From positions 1-39,737 of IMG/VR virus record IMGVR_UViG_3300033475_000076: a stretch of 39,737 nt of DNA; one strand, written 5' to 3'. Below, piece by piece: positions 6,290 through 33,702 of the stretch. The notes below the pieces were generated by a model. It worked only from the letters and a program-made list of their open reading frames with translations. It was not told the DNA's origin and made no database searches. Origin of the DNA: a virus (Duplodnaviria > Caudoviricetes). The position numbers and the translations under genes were made by a program. The stretch's first letter is position 1; every line of letters starts with the position of its first letter.

Positions 6290-7041
6290 TTCTTGCGCAG
6301 GTCGGCGGACAAGATGCCGACGACTTTCTGCTTCCCCGTGAGCTTGTAGGTGTGCTTGCCTGTCAGGATGTCGCTTGGGAGCGTGACGCGGCGCATCTTG
6401 GCGCGTGCGACCTTAGGGTCCATGCCGAGCTCTCGTGCGATATCGGCGAGAGAGATTGAGCCCTCAGGTACGACTTTGCGCGGAGGCGTCGGGAGCGGAC
6501 GTGCGGCCTTCGGTTTTTCGGGCTTGGCGTGTGTGTCCCCGTTCAGACGCTTGCTCACGACCTTGTCGATCTCCGCTTCGCGTTTCGCGCGTGCTCGCAG
6601 TTCAGGGGATGGCGGGCACACGGTGACCTTGGGTGGACGCGCTGACGTGAACCCAGCGCCATAGCACTTCTTGCACTCGAGGATGTTGAAGTCCCCAGTG
6701 CCGTCGTCTTTGCCGTCAAGATCGTCGAGGTGGAACATCTTGCCGCACTTGTGACAGGTGCCTTGGTCGCTCTTGCTGCCGTCAGCGAACTGTCCGACTT
6801 TGATCTGCTCTTTGCGCTCCTGTGCGGCGATTGCGACTTCTTCCGGCGTGAGCTTCTCTGTCAGGGCAGTCACGGCGTACTTCTGCTTGATGGCTGCGGC
6901 AAGGGTCGGATTGAGTGAGAGCAATGCACCCTCAGCCTTAGTCGTGGCGTCGGCGAGCTTGACCTTCGACTCTTTCCAGGCCTTCAGCGGACTGATACCG
7001 AGGCCAGCGCGAAGTTCGTTCAGTTGTGCTAGTGATGGCAT
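6286..7041 (-). CDS. zinc-finger plus C-terminal HTH protein (paralog 2)
   Basis: CHKC...CKKC; ISLADIARELGMDPKVARAKMRR. Confidence 0.8.
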   Translation of the reverse strand: MPSLAQLNELRAGLGISPLKAWKESKVKLADATTKAEGALLSLNPTLAAAIKQKYAVTALTEKLTPEEVAIAAQERKEQIKVGQFADGSKSDQGTCHKCGKMFHLDDLDGKDDGTGDFNILECKKCYGAGFTSARPPKVTVCPPSPELRARAKREAEIDKVVSKRLNGDTHAKPEKPKAARPLPTPPRKVVPEGSISLADIARELGMDPKVARAKMRRVTLPSDILTGKHTYKLTGKQKVVGILSADLRKK

Positions 7042-7222
7042 GTTGCATCTCCCGTTGGGTTAGGAACCGTGTCTATACCATGATTTGCCGCATACCCGTA
7101 CGGATATCTTGAAGTGTACGTGCATGGCAAATTTGACCGCTTGGGCCGAGTTCCGGCGCCAGGTGGTATGATACGTTGGATTGATGGAACCGAGGCCTTG
7201 GGCCAAATTTGCCGGCAAGGCG

Positions 7223-8158
7223 TCAATGCAGGACTGCGAGCTTAGACCTGACGCTTTCAGCCTCAGTACTCGTGAACGACCAGCCGTGCGACGGTCTGGC
7301 GTACCCTATGGCTCGCATGTGAGCGCGAGCTTGCGCTGGAGTGATGCCTACGTCCTTGGCGATCTGCGTCAGGGTGACAGCGTGACTGGTAGGTTGCTGG
7401 GATTGGGTAACGGGCTGTAGTGGGGCGTGATGGAACGCTGCCATCGTGAATGCGATTGCTCCGAGTTCGAATGCGATCGTGAACAGGAATGGGAGGAACA
7501 GCAGCACCGTCGGCTCGGCGTCTTGCTCTGAGATGGAGCGGATGCGTGCGTACAGCAGAACGAAGTTGCGCATCTTCTGCTCGCTCGATTGTGTGGACGA
7601 GTGACTGCGCTTCGCTTGCCAGAATGCGTCGTTCGCTTCCTTGTAATCGGTTGCGCGCAGGTCGAGCAGACTCTGCTTGATTAGCAAGGTCGCCTTGGCG
7701 CCTTTGCAGTTTGCGCCATCGCCCGACTTACAAGAACGTGTGACTTCGTCGCTTGCAGCGTTGAGCTCCGTTGCGGCGATGTCTTTAGACGTGGACGCTT
7801 TAGAGCGCGCCTTGTCGAGTTCGTCGATACGCTGCTTGAAGTCGCTGTCAGTGCTAAGACGCTGCTCTTGACTGTGCTGCCACATCGTTGTGGTTCTAGA
7901 TGTGCTCATGCCGACGCTTAGAATAGCTCCGACGACGAAGACTGAGGCAAGCATGAACCGATGCGTCTTGACTCTGTCCGTGTCAAATGCAGCGTGACCT
8001 GCGGACGCTGTGATTGCGAGCAGGACGGCGATCATGAGATCTACCGAGTCGATGTCTCGCCAAGACGTGAGATGGGAAAAGAGAATGTAGACGGTGATGC
8101 TGGCGCATAGTGCAGCTGAGATAATCAGGACTACGCGCGAGGCGTTCCATGAGGACAT
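7223..8158 (-). CDS. membrane protein with coiled region and C-terminal HTH (paralog 3)
   Basis: three N-terminal TMs, helical region with a Cys pair, fourth TM, then VTLTQIAKDVGITPAQARAHMR..HGWSF. Confidence 0.8.
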   Translation of the reverse strand: MSSWNASRVVLIISAALCASITVYILFSHLTSWRDIDSVDLMIAVLLAITASAGHAAFDTDRVKTHRFMLASVFVVGAILSVGMSTSRTTTMWQHSQEQRLSTDSDFKQRIDELDKARSKASTSKDIAATELNAASDEVTRSCKSGDGANCKGAKATLLIKQSLLDLRATDYKEANDAFWQAKRSHSSTQSSEQKMRNFVLLYARIRSISEQDAEPTVLLFLPFLFTIAFELGAIAFTMAAFHHAPLQPVTQSQQPTSHAVTLTQIAKDVGITPAQARAHMRAIGYARPSHGWSFTSTEAESVRSKLAVLH

Positions 8159-8242
8159 TGGGGCAGTACCACGGTTAGGGACGTGATAGTCGCGGGTGAT
8201 ACCGCCCCAGTCCAGATGTCGTCAATGGGCGAAAGGCCGGAG

Positions 8243-8917
8243 TTAGGCGCCTTTAGGTGCCCGGAGACGTTGTTTGAGGCGACTACGGATCTTCTCGGCT
8301 TCGCTCTTAGACCACGCCCAACCGTGATCCGGCTTTGGCACCTTCAACTCACGCAAAATTGCCCTGCAGACACGAGGCGGGTGACCGAGCTCTTCGCAAA
8401 TCTCCGAGATAGTGATGTGCTCGCCGCTCTTCACCTTGGCTTTCGCCTTAGCCACAGCGTCACGAGGTTTCGGAACGCGCTCCTTTTTAGGGGCACGAGT
8501 TCGCGTCACCTGTTCGACTTTGACCGCCTCATGTGGATCTTTGATCACGTTGTCATCGACCACAACGCGCCTACCGATGAACTGGCGAACAGTCGTGAAC
8601 AGCGGATCGGGCACATCCCATTCGCGCTCGGTCGGGGTGAGCTTGTGTTCGATCGCTCGCTCCAGATCGTCGCTCTGCTCGCCTCTGATACGCATACCCT
8701 TCTCAGTCAGAAGCTCATTGTTGCGCAGCCACTTGTACTCGGCTCCGTCAATGATCATGTCCAAGAACGCCTTCGCTGCATACGCGGAGTGGAAGTTGAT
8801 GAACATGAAACGATCATCTGCGTTATAGCAGTAGAAACCGAAGCGACTGTTGATCTTCGACAGGACGATTGGGAACGGCGGCGGTAACCCCAGCTTCTTG
8901 GCCTTATCCGACATCAT
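8243..8917 (-). CDS. protein with C-terminal HTH (paralog 4)
   Basis: start MMSDKAKK after a GGAGG RBS; ITISEICEELGHPPRVCRAILR..HGWAW. Confidence 0.8.
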   Translation of the reverse strand: MMSDKAKKLGLPPPFPIVLSKINSRFGFYCYNADDRFMFINFHSAYAAKAFLDMIIDGAEYKWLRNNELLTEKGMRIRGEQSDDLERAIEHKLTPTEREWDVPDPLFTTVRQFIGRRVVVDDNVIKDPHEAVKVEQVTRTRAPKKERVPKPRDAVAKAKAKVKSGEHITISEICEELGHPPRVCRAILRELKVPKPDHGWAWSKSEAEKIRSRLKQRLRAPKGA

Positions 8918-11281: not shown

Positions 11282-12484
11282 ATGCTAGCGCCGTCGGGCA
11301 CGTTACAACTCGAAACGCCGGAGGTGTTCGTCCCCGCTCTCGACCCTGCGCGCTACGTCGGCCTGTACGGCGGACGCGGCAGCGGCAAGAGCTACTTCAT
11401 GGCCGACAAGCTAATCGAGCGCGCAATCATGCGCCCAACGCGCTGGATGTGCGTGCGTGAAACGCAGGTGAGCTTGAAGCAGTCGGTGAAGCAACTCCTC
11501 ATGCAAGAGATCGATCGCTTGAACGTCGGGCGATACTTCAAGGAGCGCACAAGTCACATCGAGACCCCGGGCGGCGAGTTTGTCTTCACCGGAATGAAGA
11601 ACCACAACAGCGAGTCGATCAAGAGCTATCAGGGCTTTCACGGCGCGTGGATCGAAGAGGCGCAGACGTTCAGCCAGCGCAGTCTCGAACTGATCCGTCC
11701 GACGATCCGCGAGGACGACTCCGAGATATGGATGACGTGGAACCCGAACCTGCCCACAGATCCTGTGGACGTGTTCATGCGTCAGCAACGCCCGAAGAAC
11801 TCGATCCTCGTCAAGGCGAACTTCTATGACAATCCGTTCTTCCCCGAGGTGCTACGCGAAGACCTTGAGTACGATAAGCGTCGAGACTACGAGCGATACA
11901 AGCACGTGTGGCTTGGCGGGTATAACACCCGCAGCGATGCACGTGTGTTCAAGAACTGGCGCGTTGGAGACATCGAGGACTTCAGACCGAACACACGCAC
12001 GTATTTCTATCTCGGTGCCGACTGGGGCTACTCCATAGACCCCAGCGTGCTGATCAGCTGCTACGTCGAAGGGCGGACCTTGTTCATCGTCGCCGAGGCG
12101 TACAAGGTCGGATGCGAGATCGACTACATAGAAAAACTCTTCATCGATGCAATCCCGTACGCCAAGCAGTACATGTGTACGGCCGACTCGGCCAGGCCCG
12201 AAACCATCAGCTACTTGCGCAGGAACCACGGCTTCTCGCGCATGCGCGCTGCGAAGAAGGGACCGAACTCCATCCAGGAGGGCATCGAGTTCCTCAGGAA
12301 ATACGACATTGTGGTCCATCCGGACTGCGTGCATACCATCGATGAACTGAGCAACTACTCTTACGACCAGGACAAGCTCACTCAGGCGGTGCTGCCGAAG
12401 TTGCTCGACAAAAAGAACCACGTGATCGACGCCCTGCGATACGCGGTTGAACCTTTGCGCCGGGGCAGGATAGGGATGTTCTGA
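11282..12484 (+). CDS. terL: terminase large subunit, PBSX family
   Basis: YGGRGSGKS Walker A, WIEEA Walker B, TWNP, GADWG and NHVIDALRYA nuclease motifs. Confidence 0.97.
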   Translation: MLAPSGTLQLETPEVFVPALDPARYVGLYGGRGSGKSYFMADKLIERAIMRPTRWMCVRETQVSLKQSVKQLLMQEIDRLNVGRYFKERTSHIETPGGEFVFTGMKNHNSESIKSYQGFHGAWIEEAQTFSQRSLELIRPTIREDDSEIWMTWNPNLPTDPVDVFMRQQRPKNSILVKANFYDNPFFPEVLREDLEYDKRRDYERYKHVWLGGYNTRSDARVFKNWRVGDIEDFRPNTRTYFYLGADWGYSIDPSVLISCYVEGRTLFIVAEAYKVGCEIDYIEKLFIDAIPYAKQYMCTADSARPETISYLRRNHGFSRMRAAKKGPNSIQEGIEFLRKYDIVVHPDCVHTIDELSNYSYDQDKLTQAVLPKLLDKKNHVIDALRYAVEPLRRGRIGMF

Positions 12485-14376
12485 TGGCGACGCAGAAGAA
12501 ACCAGCACTTCAACTGATCGAGGCCAACGCTCGCATCGCCGCTCTCAAGGCGCAAGAGGCGTGGAGCATCATCCGCAGCCGTGTTGCCCAGCGACTCGGC
12601 TATAGCCATGACGGCAACCGCGACCTGTACGCGGCCTTTGGCTACAAGCGCGACATAAGGCCGATCGATCTCTATTCGCTCTATACGCGCCAGGACATCG
12701 CGCACCGCATCATCAAGGCATTTCCGCAGGCGACGTGGCGAGACACGCCAGTAGTCAGAGATGAAGCGGGCAACGGGACCGATCCTAATCAGCCGGGGTA
12801 CAGCGAGTTCGCCGACAAGGCGGACACGTTCTTCGACATGATGCGCGTAATGCACTACATGGAGCGCGCGGACAGGCTCGCATCAATTGGACGTTTCGGT
12901 CTTCTCTACATGGGCTTCGCTGACGGCAAGCCCGAGCAACCTCTCGCGGACGGCAAGAACGAACTCGTCTTTCTATCGGCCTACAGCGAGATGGGCGTGC
13001 AGATCACCTCGTGGACAAACGACATGCGGAACCCGCGTTTCGGCATGCCGGAGATGTATAGCTTGAACGCGGTCCCGTTCGACTCAGACTCGAAGGCGCC
13101 GCAGAAGACCTTCAAGGTTCATGCGTCGCGCATTATTCACATCGCCGAGATACTCGATCAAGACGAGACGTACGGCATCCCAAGACTGCTGCCTGTGGTC
13201 AATCGTCTGCAGGACTTGGAGAAAGTCGTCGGCGGCAGCGCAGAGACGTTCTGGCTGACAGCGAACCGCGGCATTGCGCTGTGGGCCGACAAGGAAGCGC
13301 AGCTGGATGAAGAGCAGCAGAACGACATCAAAGAGCAGCTGAAGAGCTTCGCTCACGGGATGCAGCGCACTCTGTCCGGCCAAGGCATGAACGCTCAGAT
13401 CCTCGGCAGCGAGAGCCCCGATCCTGCGCCGAACGCTGACAAGCTCTTGAGTCTGATCGCAGGCGCAGTCGGTATCCCGATGCGTATCCTTCTCGGTACC
13501 GAGCGCGGGCAGCTGGCATCAGGCCAAGACGAGAACAACTGGTCGCAGCGCGTTGGCGAGCGCCGGCGCATGTTCGCCACCCCGATGATGCTACGGCCGT
13601 TCATTGACTTGATGATCAAGACGGGCAACCTCCCAGCGCCGGAAGGTCACTGGTGGCCCGAGTGGTCAGACACCGACGCACTGCCCGCTGACAGCCGGAG
13701 TCAAATCGCCGAGCGCAAGACGAATGCCCTCGCAAATTATGCGAGGACTCCCGGTGCGGATCTTGTCGTGCCGATCCCCGAGTTCCGCACCAAGATCCTC
13801 GAGCTTCCGCCCGAGCCGCCTGAGGGCTGGGCTGTGGACACGACGGAGCTCGGTGCACCTGTGCAGCCGACGAACCCGAACGCGCCTGGCGGCGATCCTA
13901 ACAATCCGATCGATGTCACCAACGCGCACGTCGCTCCGCTGTACGTGAGCCGCAACGTCCTGAACACGAAGGCGATCAAGGACTGGGCGAAGGCGCAAGA
14001 CATCACTGTCACCGAGGACCCGCTGCACGTCACTATCTGCTACTCCAAGATGGCTGTGGATTGGATGAAGTTCCAGCAGTCATTCGGCGAAGACGAAGAC
14101 GGCAAGATGATGGTTCATCCCGGCGGGCCGCGTGCAATGGAATTGTTCGGTCCCAACAGCGAGGGCAAGTATGCGCTCGTGCTGCAGTTCAATAACACCG
14201 AACTGCAATGGAGGCAGAAGGAGTTCTGCGACGGCGGCGCGTCTTACGACCATGCTGACTACCAGCCTCACATCACTCTTGCCTACGTGGATCAAGGTTT
14301 TGAGATTGGCGATATCGAACCTTACACTGGCGCAATCGCCCTCGGGCCGGAGATCTTCCAAGACGTCAAGGAGTGA
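12484..14376 (+). CDS. DUF1073-type portal protein fused to a C-terminal Acb1-like 2H phosphodiesterase
   Basis: follows terL; NPRFGMPEMY, VHASRIIH, IPMRILLG portal motifs; Pro-rich linker; LHVTICYS and YQPHITLAY 2H motifs. Confidence 0.9.
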   Translation: MATQKKPALQLIEANARIAALKAQEAWSIIRSRVAQRLGYSHDGNRDLYAAFGYKRDIRPIDLYSLYTRQDIAHRIIKAFPQATWRDTPVVRDEAGNGTDPNQPGYSEFADKADTFFDMMRVMHYMERADRLASIGRFGLLYMGFADGKPEQPLADGKNELVFLSAYSEMGVQITSWTNDMRNPRFGMPEMYSLNAVPFDSDSKAPQKTFKVHASRIIHIAEILDQDETYGIPRLLPVVNRLQDLEKVVGGSAETFWLTANRGIALWADKEAQLDEEQQNDIKEQLKSFAHGMQRTLSGQGMNAQILGSESPDPAPNADKLLSLIAGAVGIPMRILLGTERGQLASGQDENNWSQRVGERRRMFATPMMLRPFIDLMIKTGNLPAPEGHWWPEWSDTDALPADSRSQIAERKTNALANYARTPGADLVVPIPEFRTKILELPPEPPEGWAVDTTELGAPVQPTNPNAPGGDPNNPIDVTNAHVAPLYVSRNVLNTKAIKDWAKAQDITVTEDPLHVTICYSKMAVDWMKFQQSFGEDEDGKMMVHPGGPRAMELFGPNSEGKYALVLQFNNTELQWRQKEFCDGGASYDHADYQPHITLAYVDQGFEIGDIEPYTGAIALGPEIFQDVKE

Positions 14377-14379
14377 GCT

Positions 14380-15159
14380 ATGCTCACGCTCAGCAATCAA
14401 GGCATCGATCCGACGAAGACGGTCGCTCTGCGTAGTCGCTACCAGCGTGAGATGAAGCGGCGGTTCGACGCATTCAAGAAAGCGGTCGACGTTCACATCC
14501 GCGACCGTAACGCGTTGCAGGTGAATGCGCCCGCGAACAAGTTGCGCGCCTTTCAACTGTGGTTGAAGCAGGCCGAACGTCAAGGCTTGCTGACACGATG
14601 GCAGAACAACTATCTTCTCAGTGCGTATCAGAAAGGGCTGGCCGGTGCAGGATCTGAGCTTGGACGCGCTGGTGCGCGCATCACTGACGACTTTATCCAC
14701 AGCGCGTGGTTCCGACCCATTCACCGTGACCGTATCGAACTCATCTACACGCGGGCGTATACGGAGCTCGACGGCATCACCACCGTTATGGACACTCAGA
14801 TCAGTCGCACCCTCGCCCAGGGCTTACTCGAAGGACGGAGTGCCGATGAACTGGCCGACGCGGTCGCGGAAAACATCGACGGTATTAGCGCGACGAGGGC
14901 GCAAGTTCTTGCGCGTACTGAAGTCATCCGCGCGCATGCGAGCGGTACTCTCGGCGCGTATCGCGAGGCTCGGATTGAAGGCGTCCATCTGAAGGCCGAG
15001 TTCAGCACTGCCGGTGACGGGCACGTGTGCTTCAAGTGCGCGGCGCTCGAAGGCAATGTCTACGATATCGACGCGGCCGAGGGAGTAATCCCTGTCCACC
15101 CGAACTGCCGTTGTGTATGGTTACCTGTGGTCATGGATGCAAGTGGAGTCGTGTTATGA
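14380..15159 (+). CDS. minor head protein, SPP1 gp7 / MuF-like
   Basis: RAQVLARTE, C..CAALEG, IPVHPNCRC. Confidence 0.92.
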   Translation: MLTLSNQGIDPTKTVALRSRYQREMKRRFDAFKKAVDVHIRDRNALQVNAPANKLRAFQLWLKQAERQGLLTRWQNNYLLSAYQKGLAGAGSELGRAGARITDDFIHSAWFRPIHRDRIELIYTRAYTELDGITTVMDTQISRTLAQGLLEGRSADELADAVAENIDGISATRAQVLARTEVIRAHASGTLGAYREARIEGVHLKAEFSTAGDGHVCFKCAALEGNVYDIDAAEGVIPVHPNCRCVWLPVVMDASGVVL

Positions 15160-15335
15160 AAGCCGGTTATAGCGAACCTGAAGCGCAGCGCGTTGAGACT
15201 CTATCGCAGACGGGCAACAGCCCGCTGTCTCACAAACCGATCCTGACAGAGAAGCCGGTCAAGATTGACCGCAGCGCGTACGAGCAACTAGCCTTTGGCT
15301 GCTATCGCAAGAAGAAGGCACCGGCGTGTCCTTGA
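15156..15335 (+). CDS. hypothetical protein
   Basis: ATGA overlap; MKAGYSEPEAQ... Confidence 0.5.
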   Translation: MKAGYSEPEAQRVETLSQTGNSPLSHKPILTEKPVKIDRSAYEQLAFGCYRKKKAPACP

Positions 15336-15601
15336 TGCTGTGCGCTCGCTGCAATCACCCTCGTGGAGAGCATTCCTACAACGGGGCCTGCTACGGCCTG
15401 TGCGGGGAGTTTATACCCATGAAAGTCAAAACAACTCTCGGTGAAGCGAGCGTGACCTTGGCCGATCGTTGCGAGAAGTGCGAGCGCTGGGCGCGCGTGA
15501 AAAACGCGCCTAGCCAAGGAGTTTGCGGCAAACGCGGCTGGCGCACCGACAAGGACGACTGGTGCCGCTACTACCGCCACCCGGAGAGTTCGCGCGATTG
15601 A
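15335..15601 (+). CDS. small Cys/His-rich metal-binding protein
   Basis: CARCNHPRGEH...C...C and CEKC...C...C; TGATG overlap. Confidence 0.55.
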   Translation: MLCARCNHPRGEHSYNGACYGLCGEFIPMKVKTTLGEASVTLADRCEKCERWARVKNAPSQGVCGKRGWRTDKDDWCRYYRHPESSRD

Positions 15602-15626
15602 CACTCCGGGCCATCGCCGTTATTGC
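15585..15626 (+). promoter_or_regulatory. putative late promoter (lysis operon)
   Basis: AGAGTTCGCGCGA-TTGACA-N17-TATTGC. Confidence 0.6.
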
Positions 15627-15649
15627 GCGACGATGGCATGGAGAGTCTA

Positions 15650-16417
15650 ATGGCGAAGTACACCTCTGACGCGAGCGGTGGCGAGCTGGTCAAGAGCCAG
15701 CATTTCGACGCACCTGACGACGCACCCGCCTACATCCGCGACGCTGCCGCAGACATCGGGATCCACGAGTGGGTCAAGAATGGCGCGGCCAAGCGATCCA
15801 ACCCCGTTGTGGAAGAGTGGATCGCAGTCACCACGGGCAAGCGTCAAGACGCGACGAACACGCCATGGTGCGCGTACTACGTCAACGCGAAGCTCGAGAA
15901 AGCCAAGATCAAGTCGACGAAGAACGGCATGGCGCGCGCCTACCTGAACTGGGGCGAGGCCGTCGAAGATGACGACTGGCAAGTCGGCGACATCTGCGTC
16001 TTCCAGCGCGGCGAGTACGATGACCACGTACTTGGCCACGTGACGTTCCTCGTCGCATGGGACGAGAACACAGTCACCTGCCTCGGCGGCAATCAACATG
16101 ACATGGTCTGCATCGAGCAGTATCCGCGTAGGCGGCTGCTAGGCGTTCGCAGGTATCGCTCAGTGTGGAAGTCCAAAACGATCGTGTCCGCGGCGGGTAG
16201 CGCTGCGACCGAAGGCGTGGCGAAGCCTGCAGCGCAGTTCGCGCTCCCCGAGCCCGATAAGGTCGGCGATGCTGTGGAGTCAGTGCGTGGGCCGCTCGAG
16301 GCGCTCTCGCACGCCAAGCCGTGGATCATCGGCATCCTCACTGCGCTGTCGATCGGCCTCGCGCTCTATGCGTGCTACTGGCGGTTCCGCGACCACAACT
16401 CCGGCAAGAACACATGA
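15650..16417 (+). CDS. TIGR02594-family endolysin candidate (NlpC/P60- or CHAP-like) with C-terminal TM
   Basis: TPWCAYYVN, ARAYLNWG, GDICVFQRG, GHVTF, LGGNQ; GGAGAG RBS. Confidence 0.85.
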   Translation: MAKYTSDASGGELVKSQHFDAPDDAPAYIRDAAADIGIHEWVKNGAAKRSNPVVEEWIAVTTGKRQDATNTPWCAYYVNAKLEKAKIKSTKNGMARAYLNWGEAVEDDDWQVGDICVFQRGEYDDHVLGHVTFLVAWDENTVTCLGGNQHDMVCIEQYPRRRLLGVRRYRSVWKSKTIVSAAGSAATEGVAKPAAQFALPEPDKVGDAVESVRGPLEALSHAKPWIIGILTALSIGLALYACYWRFRDHNSGKNT

Positions 16418-16539
16418 ACACGCTCCGCGTCATCATCCCCGCTGGCGCCGTAATGAAGGCCGAGGATATCGTCGCGCTGATTGAGCGCATTCTCGAGTCG
16501 ACAAAGGCTGGCGACAAGATCGAGGTCTCGACCAAGTGA
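16414..16539 (+). CDS. hypothetical protein
   Basis: ATGA/GTGA overlaps on both sides. Confidence 0.55.
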   Translation: MNTLRVIIPAGAVMKAEDIVALIERILESTKAGDKIEVSTK

Positions 16540-16736
16540 TCGACAATAACACTCAATGGACGCTGTGGTGCATCGGCTGGACGCTAATCACGATTGCAGC
16601 GTATCGCTATGGCGGTGAGGTCGCAGGCCTTGCAGCGCTCGGCGCAGGCTTCCTGCGCGCATCCGGCGTGCCGGGCGACTCGCCGTTCTCGACCCTTGTC
16701 GGTGCTATCCTCTCCTTCGTGAAGGTCAAGCCATGA
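16536..16736 (+). CDS. small membrane protein, possible holin
   Basis: 2-3 hydrophobic segments, within the lysis cluster. Confidence 0.5.
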   Translation: MIDNNTQWTLWCIGWTLITIAAYRYGGEVAGLAALGAGFLRASGVPGDSPFSTLVGAILSFVKVKP

Positions 16737-17098
16737 TCCCGATCCCGTTGACATGGGCGCTCGCTGCGGCTCTGTTTACTTTCGTCGGTGGTACGCTCAC
16801 AGGCGGAGTTGGCGTCTACAAGCTGTGGTCCTACTCGACGATGCGCGCGACGATCACCAAGCTGCAGACTGACAATCGACGGTTCCGACAAGCCCTCGAC
16901 TTAGGTGGGCAGATCGACACGGACGACACGCAAACGGAGCTCACCAATGATCAGATCGCTGAGGCACTCACCAAGAAGACTCCACCCGCCACGGTTAAAG
17001 TTCTGTGGCAGCGTTTCAAGACGACGTGTCCCGAGCCTGAGTCTGATCCTGTTGTCATCGATGCTGACGGCATGCGCCTCATCGGTACCCTCCGTTAG
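16733..17098 (+). CDS. i-spanin (Rz-like)
   Basis: N-terminal TM followed by a helical domain; overlaps a lipoprotein gene. Confidence 0.65.
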   Translation: MIPIPLTWALAAALFTFVGGTLTGGVGVYKLWSYSTMRATITKLQTDNRRFRQALDLGGQIDTDDTQTELTNDQIAEALTKKTPPATVKVLWQRFKTTCPEPESDPVVIDADGMRLIGTLR

Positions 17099-17306
17099 CA
17101 ACTGGAACACGGTGACGCTGCCGCCTCAGCCATCTGCAGTAGCTCAAGGAGGACGAGTTACACCATGGCCCAAGGAAGCACTCACAAAGTCCAACACTCA
17201 GCCTCTGCTCACAAAGGTTCGGCGAAACGAACTCAAGCAGGCGCGAGCGGTCAACGCATGCAAGGCGTACCACGCCAAGCTGCAGAGTCTGTACGGGGGC
17301 AAGTGA
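16947..17306 (+). CDS. o-spanin lipoprotein (Rz1-like)
   Basis: lipobox LILLSSMLTAC, Pro-rich mature part, overlaps the Rz-like gene in another frame; start uncertain. Confidence 0.65.
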   Translation: MIRSLRHSPRRLHPPRLKFCGSVSRRRVPSLSLILLSSMLTACASSVPSVSNWNTVTLPPQPSAVAQGGRVTPWPKEALTKSNTQPLLTKVRRNELKQARAVNACKAYHAKLQSLYGGK

Positions 17307-17587
17307 TGGCTAAGCAGCATCAACAGCACGAGAGGAACGGCGGCCAGCTTATGGCTGTGATCGGCCTAGGGATCACGCTGCTTCTCAATGCCGTGACTGT
17401 GGGCTATGTGTACGGCGGCGTGTCGACTCGACTGCAGGAAGCGGAGTCGAAACTCTCGAAATTTGAGAGAAAAGTTGACGACATGGCATCGCTAGCCACA
17501 GACATGGCAGTGGTGAAAACTCAGCTTGGGGCAATAAATACAACGCTAACCACGTTGTCGACCAAGCTAGATGCGCGCTCGAAGTAG
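17306..17587 (+). CDS. single-TM coiled-coil protein (holin/antiholin-like)
   Basis: TGATG overlap; TM followed by heptad repeats. Confidence 0.6.
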   Translation: MAKQHQQHERNGGQLMAVIGLGITLLLNAVTVGYVYGGVSTRLQEAESKLSKFERKVDDMASLATDMAVVKTQLGAINTTLTTLSTKLDARSK

Positions 17588-17589
17588 CC

Positions 17590-17631
17590 AGAGTTCCGGC
17601 GATTGACGGTACCATAGTTGCGGCGTATGGC
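17590..17631 (+). promoter_or_regulatory. putative late promoter (head operon)
   Basis: AGAGTTCCGGCGA-TTGACG-N17-TATGGC; 16/18 identical to the 15585 motif. Confidence 0.6.
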
Positions 17632-17672
17632 GAAGTGATGGTTCCAGTTTCTCCAGCGGAGACTTCGCCAAC

Positions 17673-18164
17673 ATGCGCCAGAACGCCACCGTTATCGGAC
17701 CCGTGGTCCCTGTCCTCGACACCAGCGCCTATGCTTCGGGTGATGTCCTGTGGACCACTCCGGTTGTCATTCCCAACGCTTGCCGCATCAAGGGCGGCGT
17801 TGCGCTGCTCAAGTCCCTCTACATTGTCGACTTCGACGACCAGGGCGTCGCCTTCGACTTGTTCTTCCAGAACGCTGCGTCCTCGCTCGGCACCGTCAAC
17901 GGCGCCCCCAACATCTCCGACGCCAACGCTCTCGCGTCGATCGTCGGCCGCGTGCCGATCGCTACCACTGACTATGTGGACCTCGGCGGTGTTCGCATCG
18001 CTCGCCCGACCAACGCTGTGTGCGAGAGCATGATGCAGGCTCTGACCTCATCTCGCGACCTCTACATCTCGGCGGTCAATGGCGCGGGCACACCGACCTT
18101 CACTGCCGCGGGTCTGAAGTTCTTCTTCGGCTTCGAGCAGTATCCGTTCGGCTACGCAGGCTAA
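17673..18164 (+). CDS. putative virion protein (beta-rich)
   Basis: strong codon bias, GGAGA RBS, first gene of the head operon. Confidence 0.7.
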   Translation: MRQNATVIGPVVPVLDTSAYASGDVLWTTPVVIPNACRIKGGVALLKSLYIVDFDDQGVAFDLFFQNAASSLGTVNGAPNISDANALASIVGRVPIATTDYVDLGGVRIARPTNAVCESMMQALTSSRDLYISAVNGAGTPTFTAAGLKFFFGFEQYPFGYAG

Positions 18165-18175
18165 CGACCACGGCA

Positions 18176-19279
18176 ATGTGTAAAGCGGATTGCAATTGTC
18201 AGCGACAGGTGACGCCGGCCCTCCGGCTTCATCTGTCGTCGAGTGACATCAAGCCGGTCCGCTACCAGAAGCGAGACCACGTTGTCGTGCCAGTCGTTCT
18301 GGCCAAGTCCGACGTGGTCATGAACGATCATCTCTTCCCACGTGAGGAGTACTTCCCGCTCGCGTGGAATGGTGTACCTGTAACGGTCCAGCATCCCAGC
18401 AAGGACGGCCAGCATATCAGCGCCAATGATCCGAATACTCTCGAAGAGTGGTCAATCGGTCGGATCTTCAATGTGCGTGATGATAACGGCAGCCTTGTTG
18501 GCGAAGCTTGGATCGATGTTGCGCTCGCCAATGAGCTTGCGCCCGGCCTGATCGATGCGATCCGCAAGGGCGAAGCAATTGACGTGAGCACGGGATACTT
18601 CGCGGACTTCGAGGCAGCACCGGGTGAGATCAACGGAAAGACCTACTCGGGCATTCATCGCAACATCCGCCCCGACCACCTCGCGTTCCTGCCAGGTGCC
18701 GAGGGCGCGTGCAATTGGACGGATGGCTGTGGCATCAGGAGCAACCTGCGGATGAAGATCAATGAGAAGTTTATGGCCGGTCTCAAAGCGATGACCGATG
18801 CCGTAGAGCAACTCAAGGCGCTGGTGGGGAACATCGTCGCCGAAGAGAAGAGTGAACCCGAGTTGAAGCTGAACGAGGAGCCCACCTTGAAGAAGGAAGA
18901 GATCGAGGCGATGGTCCGCGAGACCGTTGCTGCGACGGTCAAGGGTGCGATGGCCGAGGTGGTCGCCGCGCTCAAGACCAACGCACCTGCCCTGTCCGCC
19001 GAGGACCAGGCAGCTATCGCCGCCGCCAAGGGCATCGTCGCCCAGAAGCGTGCGAAGCTCATCGCTGACGTGTGCGCACAGTCGAAGATGACCAAGGAGC
19101 AGGCCGAGGCAATGCCCGACGCTACGCTCGAGGTCTTCCTCGCCTCGCTGCCGCCCGTCGCCGCACCGACCTACATGGGCCGTCCGGCCCCCATCGCCTC
19201 CAACGCCGATGATCCGGCGGCCAAGGAGATGGCCTCGTTCGGTGTGCTGGCGCACTTCCGTAAGAAGGAGGCTGCATAA
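18176..19279 (+). CDS. prohead protease (DUF2213) with scaffold-like C-terminus
   Basis: WNGVPVTVQHP, DVSTGY, PDHLAFLP..GAC...GCG; helical Ala-rich tail. Confidence 0.88.
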   Translation: MCKADCNCQRQVTPALRLHLSSSDIKPVRYQKRDHVVVPVVLAKSDVVMNDHLFPREEYFPLAWNGVPVTVQHPSKDGQHISANDPNTLEEWSIGRIFNVRDDNGSLVGEAWIDVALANELAPGLIDAIRKGEAIDVSTGYFADFEAAPGEINGKTYSGIHRNIRPDHLAFLPGAEGACNWTDGCGIRSNLRMKINEKFMAGLKAMTDAVEQLKALVGNIVAEEKSEPELKLNEEPTLKKEEIEAMVRETVAATVKGAMAEVVAALKTNAPALSAEDQAAIAAAKGIVAQKRAKLIADVCAQSKMTKEQAEAMPDATLEVFLASLPPVAAPTYMGRPAPIASNADDPAAKEMASFGVLAHFRKKEAA

Positions 19280-19281
19280 CC

Positions 19282-19752
19282 ATGGCGTCCAACACTGCAC
19301 CCAAGACCATCTTGCTGTCCGGTAACCCGGGCTGCTATGAAGGCGTCGCCAACGCGGCCATCCGCCCTGGCGACCTCATCGAGGTCATGACCACTGGCAA
19401 GCTGCGCAAGCACGCTACCGCCGCTGGCGTCGCCTCGGCACTGTTCGCCCGCGAGGAGGAGTACGTCGGCGGGGACATCGATACCGACTACGCTGCCAAC
19501 GATCAGGTCGCGTACTGGAGCGCCAAGAAGGGCGACCGGTTCTACGCCTGGTTGAAGAACGGCGAGAACGCTGCGCTCGGTGCGTTCCTCGAGTCGGGCG
19601 GCAACGGCTCCCTGCAGGTGACCACTCACGGAACAGGCAGCGCGACCACAGCCGCTGCATGGCCCGTCGCCCGCGCCCTCGAAGCTGTGGACAACAGCGG
19701 CGGCGGCACTGGCCCGAACTCCACCGCGCGCATCAAGGTGGAGGTGCTGTAA
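19282..19752 (+). CDS. head decoration/cement protein
   Basis: between protease and MCP; AAIRPG, LESGGNGSL, ALEAVDNS pattern. Confidence 0.75.
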   Translation: MASNTAPKTILLSGNPGCYEGVANAAIRPGDLIEVMTTGKLRKHATAAGVASALFAREEEYVGGDIDTDYAANDQVAYWSAKKGDRFYAWLKNGENAALGAFLESGGNGSLQVTTHGTGSATTAAAWPVARALEAVDNSGGGTGPNSTARIKVEVL

Positions 19753-19753
19753 C

Positions 19754-20776
19754 ATGCAGTTTCAGGAGATCGCCAACCCGGCCCGTGTGCTCATGGGCCA
19801 AATGAGCGTTCACGCTATGCGGCCGTATATCGACCGCGATGGCGTGACCAAGATCGTCGGCAATGACGGCCGCGGGATCCAGACCAACGCGGTCGGCCTG
19901 CTGCAGTACGACGAGTGGAAGGACCTCGACCGTCGCGTGATCGAGATCGCCACCCAGCGTCTCGTCGCTGTCGGTGACCTGATCAGCCGCGGCCTGACGC
20001 ACAACCTCGGCAGCATCGGTCAGACCATCTCTCAGTGGGAGCGCTCGTCCGACATGACCGGCGCCAACATTGACATGACGGCCGAAGCTCAGGGCGAAGA
20101 GGACACGCCCGCCTACGACTACAAGGCGGTGCCGGTGCCGATCGTCCACAAGGACTTCCGCATCAACCTGCGCCGTCTCGCCGCATCTCGCCTCGTCGGC
20201 GAAGGTGTGGACGTGCTGGCGTCGGACATCGCGGCTCGCGTCGTCGCTGAGAAGAGCGAAGACATGCTGCTGTCGGGCTCGGCTATCCAGGTGGATGGAA
20301 ACACCATCTACGGATATACGAACCACCCCGATCGCAACACGGTCACTCTCGCCTTGGCGTGGGACAACGCTGCGATCACCGGCCCTGACATCCTCGCCGA
20401 CGTTCAGGCGATGATCACGGCCGCCAAGGCTGATCGGTACTACGGGCCTTACACGCTCTACGTGCCGCAGGCCTACGAGCAGATCCTCGACAACGACTAC
20501 AACCCCGGCACTGCCGACACGCGCACCATCAAGACGCGCCTGTTGCAGCTGTCGGAGTTGACGGACATCAAGGTGGTCGATCGCCTCGCAGCGAACAACG
20601 TCCTCCTCATCCAGATGCAGCGTGAAGTCGTTGATTGGGCGATTGCACAGGACGTCTCCACCGTGCAGTGGCAAGTCAACGGCACCATGCAGGAGCGCTT
20701 CAAGGTGATGGCCGTGTGGGCGCCGCGAGTCAAGTCTGACTTCGACGGCCACTCCGGCATCGTTCACCTGTCCTGA
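19754..20776 (+). CDS. major capsid protein (HK97 fold, encapsulin/Linocin-M18-like family)
   Basis: PVPIVHKDFRINLRRL, YGYTNHP, YYGPYTLY; position; followed by a terminator. Confidence 0.9.
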   Translation: MQFQEIANPARVLMGQMSVHAMRPYIDRDGVTKIVGNDGRGIQTNAVGLLQYDEWKDLDRRVIEIATQRLVAVGDLISRGLTHNLGSIGQTISQWERSSDMTGANIDMTAEAQGEEDTPAYDYKAVPVPIVHKDFRINLRRLAASRLVGEGVDVLASDIAARVVAEKSEDMLLSGSAIQVDGNTIYGYTNHPDRNTVTLALAWDNAAITGPDILADVQAMITAAKADRYYGPYTLYVPQAYEQILDNDYNPGTADTRTIKTRLLQLSELTDIKVVDRLAANNVLLIQMQREVVDWAIAQDVSTVQWQVNGTMQERFKVMAVWAPRVKSDFDGHSGIVHLS

Positions 20777-23695: not shown

Positions 23696-23787
23696 TCATG
23701 TCGGCCCATCGGCCGGCGAAGATGTACGGATCAATGAGTGAGAGTGAAGTAGAAGAGATCTACGAAGAGGCTTACGGACATGGCTGA
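23575..23787 (+). CDS. -1 frameshift extension of the tail chaperone (GT-like)
   Basis: GGGAAAC at 23575-23581; the -1 frame encodes ..SPADFWRLRPFELW.., a chaperone-type motif. Confidence 0.75.
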   Translation, partial: GKRVKGRGQIVKEVFKAAIKNEWVASPADFWRLRPFELWLIMSAHRPAKMYGSMSESEVEEIYEEAYGHG

Positions 23788-24193
23788 CCTGTCAATCACC
23801 TCAACCGCAGTTCTTCCCGGTACCGATGCAGTAATCGAGCGTGGCCTTGCGAACGCTGCGGCGTCTGCAGGTGACCTCGCCTACTACGACTCGGCGACCG
23901 GTCAGTATGGCAAGCACGACGCGGACAGCGTTACTGCCGCTATTCGGACACTCCGCGGGATGTTCGTCGACTCGCCCGGCGCGGCAGGAGCCGCGTGCTG
24001 TGTGCAGACCAAGGGCGACGTGACCGTTGGTGCTGTGCTCACGCAGGGCAAGATCTACATCGGCAGCGCGACCGCGGGCAAGGTTGCTCCTGTGGCGGAT
24101 CAGGCGTCAGGCATGTATGCGAACATCATCGGCATTGCGAAGACTGCTTCCGTGCTGACGATCAACGTCGTGAACGGTCCTGCCGCTCAGTAA
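23780..24193 (+). CDS. putative virion protein
   Basis: MADLSIT..., Gly/Ala/beta-rich, decoration-like. Confidence 0.7.
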   Translation: MADLSITSTAVLPGTDAVIERGLANAAASAGDLAYYDSATGQYGKHDADSVTAAIRTLRGMFVDSPGAAGAACCVQTKGDVTVGAVLTQGKIYIGSATAGKVAPVADQASGMYANIIGIAKTASVLTINVVNGPAAQ

Positions 24194-33138: not shown

Positions 33139-33702
33139 TCAGCGCCACAGGCCTTTGAACCTGTGCGCTGCCGTCGCTGTGTACCGCGCGGTCATGTTCG
33201 CGTCGCGATGCCCTAAGTAGTCCTGGATCAGCCGGCTGTCGAGGCCTTCATTGGCGAGGTAGTAGCCGCAGGAATGGCGCAACATGTGAGGATGAACGTG
33301 CCCGAGGCCCGCGCGCTCGCCTGCGGCAGCGATCAGGATATTGACCGTGCTGCGAGCCAGCGGCGACCCACTCGGGCCGGGGAAGAGCCATATACTGTTG
33401 TGGTCCTTCAGATACGCACGCAGCATGCGGAGCTCGTCTCCTTCGATCGGCTGCTGAGTGCTCGTGCTACCCTTCAAGCGATTGACCTGCAAGCGAGCCT
33501 CGTCAAGGTCTACGGCGTCACGTCGCATGTTGACCGCTTCGCTCACGCGCAGACCGTGGCGAAACATCATCAGGAGCAGTAGACGATCGCGCCCGACGCG
33601 TGCCGCAGCGAGCAACGACTTGATCTCGGCAGGTGTCAAGTAGTTCTTCGCGCGACCGTCTACGGCCTCGTTTTCAACATTACTCGTTTTGGCGGCTGTC
33701 AT
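33139..33702 (-). CDS. small tyrosine recombinase, catalytic domain only (FimB/FimE- or resolvase-like)
   Basis: HGLRVSE, RLKG, HPHMLRHSCG, IQDYLGH, TARYT (R-K-H-R-H-Y intact). Confidence 0.93.
   Translation of the reverse strand: MTAAKTSNVENEAVDGRAKNYLTPAEIKSLLAAARVGRDRLLLLMMFRHGLRVSEAVNMRRDAVDLDEARLQVNRLKGSTSTQQPIEGDELRMLRAYLKDHNSIWLFPGPSGSPLARSTVNILIAAAGERAGLGHVHPHMLRHSCGYYLANEGLDSRLIQDYLGHRDANMTARYTATAAHRFKGLWR

Follow-up and report, generated by a model that had tools for sequence, protein, structure and literature searches.

The residue that joins phage portals to an Acb1-like domain tracks the prohead-protease type and points to a predicted cut site

We consider here the portal protein encoded in a 39,737-nucleotide stretch of DNA of a tailed virus (Caudoviricetes; IMG/VR record IMGVR_UViG_3300033475_000076, positions 1 to 39,737), called the window below, which is the whole 39.7 kb virus record, with a completeness of about 73%. 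The portal (12484..14376, + strand, 630 aa) is of the DUF1073 type and carries at its C-terminus an Acb1-like 2H phosphoesterase domain. It is found that the residue standing just before the Acb1-like fold in such fusions follows the type of the prohead protease of the same genome, being mostly Asn in the clade of the window, Asp in another clade and Lys in HK97-type portals, and from this comparison we infer that the linker of the window portal is probably cut after Asn480. An earlier note on this DNA had proposed that a recurrent tripeptide, [TVSA]-N-A, marks sites at the domain boundaries of head proteins where a DUF2213 protease cuts after Asn, releasing up to 12 copies of the nuclease in each head.

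In the model that we propose, the portal ring would enter the prohead with 12 tethered Acb1-like domains on its inner face, and the prohead protease would then trim the scaffold, the leader of the major capsid protein (MCP, at Asn45), the end of its own domain (at Asn190) and the portal linker after Asn480. The cut at N480 would free up to 12 copies of the minimal enzyme, which probably would stay in the head and possibly would be ejected with the DNA, destroying cyclic-nucleotide immune signals. Taken as a whole (the cut, the retention and the possible ejection) we hold this to be the best explanation, and a reasonably probable one. As to its parts, the cleavage at N480 is the one that we expect with most confidence, similar Asn cuts at N45 of the MCP and N190 of the protease are likely by the same comparison, and the retention and ejection of the freed domain are tentative, leaning slightly to the doubtful side.

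The portal and the 2H domain share one open frame, with no stops, in a terminase-portal head module, where PF06381 matches the portal at aa 63-415 and PF23474 (Acb1) matches at aa 485-629 (E 2.7e-31), PHROG also having matches to the portal. In the structural model, a folded portal is followed by a disordered linker (aa 449-481, with the predicted local distance difference test, pLDDT, <50) and then by a folded 2H domain, whose first strand starts from residue 484; the model matches the portals of Sf11, Pam3 and T1 as well as the FBB1 Acb1. The linker, rich in Pro, Asp and Asn (13828..13926, + strand), ends with T479-N480|A481 (13918-13926), the predicted cut site, which in the window portal is four residues ahead of the first strand of the Acb1-like domain (aa 481-630, 13924..14373, + strand). 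Portals are dodecamers, with the C-terminal crown and barrel facing the interior of the capsid. It is noted that in the Pam3 paper the barrel and crown of the portal are the innermost parts (PMC9942802). With the site fixed 6-7 residues from the fold, away from the crown, the acidic linker would remain on the portal after a cut.

The evidence that carries this reading comes from the relatives. A search with the Acb1 part gave 517 proteins of portal size, 120 of which were listed, and the loci examined, with the window included, hold 94 open reading frames (ORFs) with an Acb1 domain; a single-sequence locus search with the whole portal as the query gave no match. The portals were classed by the similarity of the portal part, independently of the junction residue. 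Among 213 rows, the residue 6-7 positions before the fold is Asn in 36/42 of the window clade, Asp in 163/165 of the other DUF1073 clade and Lys in 4/4 of the HK97-type portals, and once domains more than 70% identical are merged (90 rows) the counts become 24/27 for Asn, 57/58 for Asp in that second clade, which is the one of Pam3 and phiPSA1, and 3/3 for Lys, with the linker background being 2.7% for Asn and 8.1% for Asp. The Lys junctions of the HK97-type portals are anchored by HK97 gp4, which cuts after Lys. At the 71 loci with both a junction and a protease, the junction residue agrees with the protease type in 70 (58/58 for Asp, 10/11 for Asn and 2/2 for Lys).

Moreover, the same residues recur at other ends in the same genomes. 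In the Asn group, 80 of 84 distinct sequences have an Asn within 6 residues past the protease domain, that of the window being N190 (18743), and 71 of 80 MCP leaders have Asn at their end, while in the Asp group, the proteases of which are canonical DUF2213 ones, Asp is present at the protease-domain end in 41/41 and at the leader end in 31/31. The Asn content of the MCP leaders is 8.3% in the Asn group versus 2.9% in the Asp group. As a side observation, in L012, L014 and L215 the Asn is lost at the protease end and at the MCP leader end together, a small concordance within the family; judged from their sequences, these lineages possibly have a shifted protease specificity.

The Acb1 domain is also found on carriers other than the DUF1073-type and HK97-type portals. 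Among shorter proteins the search gave 43 matches, in 13 of which Acb1 stands ahead of an XkdF-like protease domain (PF14550 scoring above the cut-off in 6/13, the mutual identity being 42-72%). In these proteins Lys precedes Acb1 in 13/13 and [VI]-E-K follows it in 12/13 (the Lys-bracketed set consists of P0126, P0128, P0131, P0133, P0135, P0136, P0138-P0141, P0150, P0151 and P0154, and also includes L294:7995-9380). Eight further loci with Lys-rich carriers mostly have Lys in that position or close to it, with a looser fit in L283 and L324. At L311:6464-8344 the Acb1 domain is flanked on either side by Asp and stands ahead of a DUF2213 protease/scaffold, the portal of L311 having no Acb1, and in five nearly related loci of Mu-type portals Phe is present 8 residues before the Acb1 fold. 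Because the junction residue thus tracks the prohead-protease type across both portal and protease carriers, the cut-site idea is strongly supported, and at the level of sequence comparison we regard the cut-site code as real and well supported. Note, though, that the independent points in this comparison are the carrier types, about four or five, rather than the hundreds of rows.

Several smaller observations on these carriers were also made. In the Mu-type portals of L288, L292, L299, L300 and L302 (ORFs near 6600-8750) and in P0079, the internal Acb1 is preceded by Phe-Ala, and in L288 and L292 another Phe-Ala stands after it. P0158, P0163 and P0165, near stand-alone relatives of Acb1, have short or Glu-rich leaders, with Glu at the junction place in two of them, which recalls the leaders of the T4 type. 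At the C-terminus of the E217 portal (L265:10700-11421), about 240 unmodelled residues resemble another cargo domain, perhaps of a pyrophosphatase-like family.

A common motif directs prohead proteases to the capsid, scaffold and cargo proteins that they trim, as is the case for T4 gp21 and HK97 gp4; HK97 gp4 cuts after Lys, and the T4 cargo leaders are cut after Glu. The product of 18176..19279 (+ strand; 367 aa when started with the ATG at 18176, comprising protease and scaffold) has, in the model of its N-terminal domain (69 relatives, pLDDT 91), the T4 gp21/assemblin type of prohead-protease fold: it matches T4 gp21 with Z 11.2 and a root-mean-square deviation of 3.1 over 136 residues (Foldseek E 3e-4), and it also matches the herpesvirus assemblins, with Z 8.5 for the protease of varicella-zoster virus. 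His73, Ser138 and His168 are invariant among the 69 sequences and are the putative catalytic residues. The earlier note had read this ORF as a DUF2213-like prohead protease, and the fold match and the invariant His/Ser/His bear it out, the DUF2213 match itself being weak (E 2.9e-9). The start was set at 18176 rather than at 18020, so that this ORF and the one upstream do not overlap and its beginning is like those of the relatives, which are Cys-rich. The protease of Sf11 is homologous to that of the window (E 3e-17).

We now turn to the tripeptide itself. All the copies named in the earlier note are in frame where it had placed them, and the four head proteins (1596 aa) hold 7 copies of [TVSA]NA versus a shuffle mean of 2.3 (p ~0.01, for a motif picked after the data were seen), with 14 copies versus 10.6 expected in the 28 other ORFs (7850 aa; p 0.18). 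The excess in the window is therefore modest by itself, and it is the relatives that make the key sites convincing. Conservation is strong at N480 of the portal and at the leader Asn of the MCP, and N190 is a further such site. It is moderate at the MuF loop, where Asn is present in 38/82 relatives by a crude count (12 rows, including the window, being unparsed), and at the C-terminal ASNAD of the scaffold, where by a crude pattern Asn lies within 14 aa past a Y/F-x-G motif in 50/63 parsed scaffolds; the two copies of the protease/scaffold are TNA at 18977 and SNA at 19199. At A14-N15-A16 of the portal leader (IEANAR, 12523..12531, + strand), within a predicted helix (residues 7-37), the column has Asn in 2/16 aligned portal rows, which had been chosen for Asn at the junction, so that the site is doubtful; the conserved N-terminal Asn column (11/16) is Gln24 in the window portal. 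The seventh copy, which the earlier list lacked, is K-T-N414-A (KTNAL, N414 at 13723..13725, + strand) in the portal crown; it falls in a predicted helix (residues 402-421), has Asn in 2/16 of the same rows and is probably uncut.

Because the N414 copy is helical and unconserved, the tripeptide alone marks no site. Around the sites the consensus is roughly [IVK]-[VTA]-N, the scaffolds and leaders preferring Ile/Val and then Val/Thr/Ala before Asn, and the residue after the junction Asn is loose (Ala 15, Met 7, Ser 1 and Thr 1, n=24). A strict xN-A motif was ruled out by this looseness together with the KTNAL copy. Thus, of what had been proposed, cutting after Asn by the DUF2213-type protease and conservation of the Asn in homologous portal-2H fusions gain strong comparative support, the Ala after it being unneeded; the placement at domain boundaries holds for N480, before the Acb1 fold, and for the MCP, at the start of DUF6260, and fails for the V48-N49-A50 of MuF, which is internal and away from any domain boundary. 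Note also that Gln or His is often found at the expected place of Asn (L183, L117, L010, L134 and Q24 of the window portal, 12553-12555), an observation made post hoc; the protease may perhaps accept Gln or His besides Asn.

Cultured phages provide data on the capsid leader. In the MCP of the window (DUF6260; 19754..20776, + strand), the leader end T44-N45|A46 (19883-19891) coincides with the start of the Pfam match (PF19774, from aa 45). The leaders of Sf11 (N45|A46) and ES18 (N51|A52) also end with Asn-Ala, and the ES18 coat presumably loses 51 residues. The Sf11 MCP is modelled from A46, right after L-N45, and its authors infer cleavage (PMC12724387). In the Asp group, the model of the E217 MCP begins with residue 66, which directly follows A-M-D64|S65 (PMC10329688), and the E217 portal has A-M-D at 71-73 with a model from 97, which is an imprecise match to a cut site. 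For Pa193, the first 93 residues of the portal are missing from both the map and the liquid chromatography-mass spectrometry (PMC11456595). For Pam3, which has a portal-Acb1 chain of its own, 442 of the 621 residues are modelled (PDB 8HDS); in the Pam3 paper (PMC9942802) the strings 'cleav' and 'protease' occur 0 times and the protease gene is labelled 'head scaffold', and the table in the Pam genome paper has for mass spectrometry a yes/no column only (PMC9382816).

The Acb1-like domain appears to be kept as an enzyme. Its PF23474 score is 108.7 bits against a curated cut-off of 27, it matches 7T26 with E 5.6e-8, its catalytic tetrad is intact (H515-V-T517 and H596-I-T598), and Y487, the equivalent of Tyr12, is invariant in 35 aligned fusions. 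Because both HxT motifs are intact in 27/27 domains of the Asn group and 57/58 of the Asp group, the domain is under selection as an enzyme. An invariant structural Asn inside the domain is followed by Ala, Ser or Gly in 12/27 of the Asn group versus 47/58 of the Asp group (Fisher p 0.001, which ignores kinship); such a dearth of small residues after this Asn in the Asn group would make sense for a freed domain that has to withstand an Asn protease. Together with the position of the site beside the fold, this context hints at the survival of the product. The idea that the Acb1 domain is in general depleted of cut motifs was considered and dropped.

A number of results weigh against the proposed reading. 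In the comparison of the junctions, 3 of the 27 Asn-group members (L036, the L107 group and L183) have no Asn there, and L036 still has an Asn-type protease and MCP. A single clade of the Asn-group Acb1 domains is not rejected (approximately unbiased test, p 0.347, on 80 rows, without 5 long branches and the carriers of neither Asn nor Asp type), so the Asn versus Asp difference may be one event and the counts non-independent; on the quick tree of the Acb1 domain the Asn and Asp rows are mixed, with weak support (9/87 branches starred), and several independent Asn/Asp swaps (12-13 changes on that tree) were dropped because the single Asn clade is not rejected. As to the cut, the mass-spectrometry coverage of the Sf11 MCP is quoted as residues 40-356, spanning N45|A46 (PMC12724387), which would suggest that the leader is cut in part of the copies or at an Asn nearer the N-terminus, and argues against a complete cut at N45. 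The missing density of Pam3 equally fits a flexible tether, and in the literature examined, with most subscription papers outside the reach of the search, neither a measured cut nor a measured N-terminus was found for any of these proteins. The wider tests for loss of the cut motif inside the Acb1 domain are non-significant (p 0.10-0.91). As to the function, CBASS (the cyclic-oligonucleotide-based antiphage signalling system) acts late in infection (PMC9117128), so that early delivery is not obviously needed, and our results have no direct bearing on ejection. Finally, the window copy ends at E630, before the position of the Trp147 lid of the FBB1 Acb1, and has Gln626 at the position of the adenine-reading Glu141 (both positions being mapped to 7T26 through the relative P0152), an aromatic tail residue being present in 10/25 Asn-group versus 45/58 Asp-group domains.

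With the Gln at the Glu141 position and the lid missing, the domain is Acb1-like, judged by its sequence, rather than an established Acb1, and for the lid-less copy a CBASS-type signal as the substrate is a possibility that we hold in even balance. It may be that the cut and the packaging are real and that the substrate is a 2',3'-cyclic RNA end or another oligonucleotide, a reading compatible with our best explanation and to which we give a lesser, though appreciable, chance. Besides the lid and the Glu-to-Gln change, it draws on a weak match to phrog_755 ('RNA ligase') and on RNase action having been one option given for portal-fused 2H domains (Iyer et al. 2017, PMC5512222); the best profile match is nevertheless Acb1, by the score given above, and Y487 is invariant.

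That no cut occurs at the junction at all, Asn and Asp being a structural cap or a linker residue fixed by lineage and the Acb1 domain staying tethered inside the head, we consider improbable. Asn and Asp can indeed replace each other as caps, a single clade may account for the Asn group, three members of which depart from the rule, and the Sf11 coverage from residue 40 shows that cutting at a site of this kind may be incomplete. Against a cap or a frozen linker, Lys (in HK97 portals and XkdF proteases) and Phe (in Mu portals) occupy the same place where the carriers differ, the junction residue lies within the segment of low pLDDT, and the same residue is present at the MCP leader and protease ends of the same genomes. 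That free Acb1 arises from an internal translation start at the junction can be given almost no weight: Met follows Asn in 7/24 Asn-group junctions, yet no in-frame ATG, GTG or TTG is present in the 12 codons before the Acb1 domain in the window, and 0/80 distinct junctions have a start codon with a Shine-Dalgarno-like word upstream, by which the internal start was ruled out.

The serious rival to ejection is that the domain is cut off and acts in the producing cell, the freed piece being lost or irrelevant in the virion; we regard it as unlikely on balance. According to this view, a domain fused to the portal is expressed late, at the time at which CBASS fires and head proteases are sensed, and the cut clears 12 bulky domains off the portal before DNA packaging. 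It is in line with the lateness of CBASS death and of Acb1 activity (PMC9117128) and with the prohead protease of T1 being reported, second-hand, as a CBASS trigger (PMC13728456); the Asp-group protease has relatives in T1-like phages, T1 itself being absent from the rows shown. Also, no virion peptides for the domain were found in the supplements searched for Pam3, Sf11 and Pa193, where Pam3, Sf11 and two of the three Pa193 supplements hold no peptide-level virion data. By contrast, the site being fixed close to the fold and not near the crown would release a minimal enzyme, the protease-borne Acb1 copies are bracketed on both sides, and a folded domain of 150 residues is unlikely to exit through the pores of an HK97-fold capsid. 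A bolder form of our best explanation can also be put forward, as a speculation that is less probable than not by a clear measure: Acb1 would be a mobile capsid-cargo module that, on three types of portal and two of protease, takes on whichever residue the local prohead protease cuts at (Asn, Asp, Lys or Phe), to be excised and injected as an anti-CBASS nuclease. The class of protease that CBASS senses would thereby also set free the antidote, and the DUF6260/ES18/Sf11 family would stand for a prohead protease with specificity for Asn.

In known systems, T4 gp21 processes the internal proteins and Alt, and HK97 gp4 removes the delta domain, with one head protease, of the same fold as that of the window, trimming shell, scaffold and cargo at a short common motif. 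The T4 cargoes are separate proteins with an N-terminal targeting leader, whereas the cargo of the window is a C-terminal portal domain with a predicted Asn at the residue before the cut; the system would thus work like the cleaved-signal cargo of T4 type without being a member, the common cut motif being found by comparison. The packaging of Alt in T4 is described in PMC5512222. In the same paper, Iyer, Burroughs, Anand, de Souza and Aravind (2017) described 2H domains fused to MuF and portal proteins and proposed them to be packaged effectors possibly degrading nucleotide immune signals, which is the same architecture and proposal as for the window portal, a cut site matched to the prohead protease being absent from that account in the part seen. 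What is new here is therefore the link between the junction residue and the prohead-protease type, the idea of the packaged effector dating from 2017. No paper tying the junction residue to protease specificity, or describing an Asn-specific prohead protease, was found in a search that most of the subscription literature lay outside, and the available text of two bioRxiv papers that were checked does not mention the fusion.

The Acb1 of T4 and FBB1 (Hobbs et al. 2022, PMC9117128; 7T26) shares with the window domain the 2H fold, the HxT/HxT tetrad, the Tyr12 equivalent and PF23474. The characterised Acb1 proteins are stand-alone, in contrast to the portal-fused window copy with its missing lid and its Gln, and the words 'portal', 'fused' and 'virion' are absent from that paper. 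Portal gp3 of Pam3 (8HDS; PMC9942802) is a portal-Acb1 fusion of a cultured phage beside a DUF2213 protease, like that of the window, with a junction of the Asp type instead of the Asn type. Heads of the Sf11/ES18/TW1 type have the same DUF6260 capsid family, a homologous protease and the Asn-Ala leader end, and the portals of Sf11 and ES18 are short (470 and 449 aa), without an extension of Acb1 size. Portal-Acb1 fusions are common: besides the 517 proteins, there are 1178 matching records of cultured phages, 33 of which span the greater part of an Asp-group query, and many such portals are named 'anti-CBASS protein Acb1 family protein' by NCBI, or 'portal'. If the cut is real, the prediction of 2017 is reduced to a one-residue experiment, the DUF2213-type proteases get a readable specificity code (Asn or Asp), the boundaries of cargo become predictable in other head fusions, and Acb1 becomes a candidate for a virion-delivered anti-CBASS enzyme.

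Finally, the head module of the window has the order terminase, portal, MuF, lysis cassette, protease/scaffold, decoration protein and MCP. The MuF head protein (SPP1 gp7-like; PF04233) lies at 14380..15159 (+ strand), its V48-N49-A50 at 14521-14529 being in a variable loop, and the head decoration protein (phrog_766) at 19282..19752 (+ strand). The interval between MuF and the protease is a lysis cassette in the window (15623-17587, a CHAP-domain lysin and three small membrane- or spanin-like ORFs), unlike in the relatives L036:13400-18600, L214:14200-20300, L080:13400-16500 and L032, where by sequence appearance it holds blocks of glycosyltransferase- and methyltransferase-like ORFs. The MuF ORFs of L017, L021 and L080 have, also by appearance, intein-like insertions at a C-terminal Cys motif. 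A small late ORF at 17673-18164 has five NA dipeptides, with no Pfam, NCBIfam or PHROG match, another small late ORF lies at 23780-24193, and a small ORF at 33139-33702 (- strand) has, by eye, tyrosine-recombinase-like motifs.

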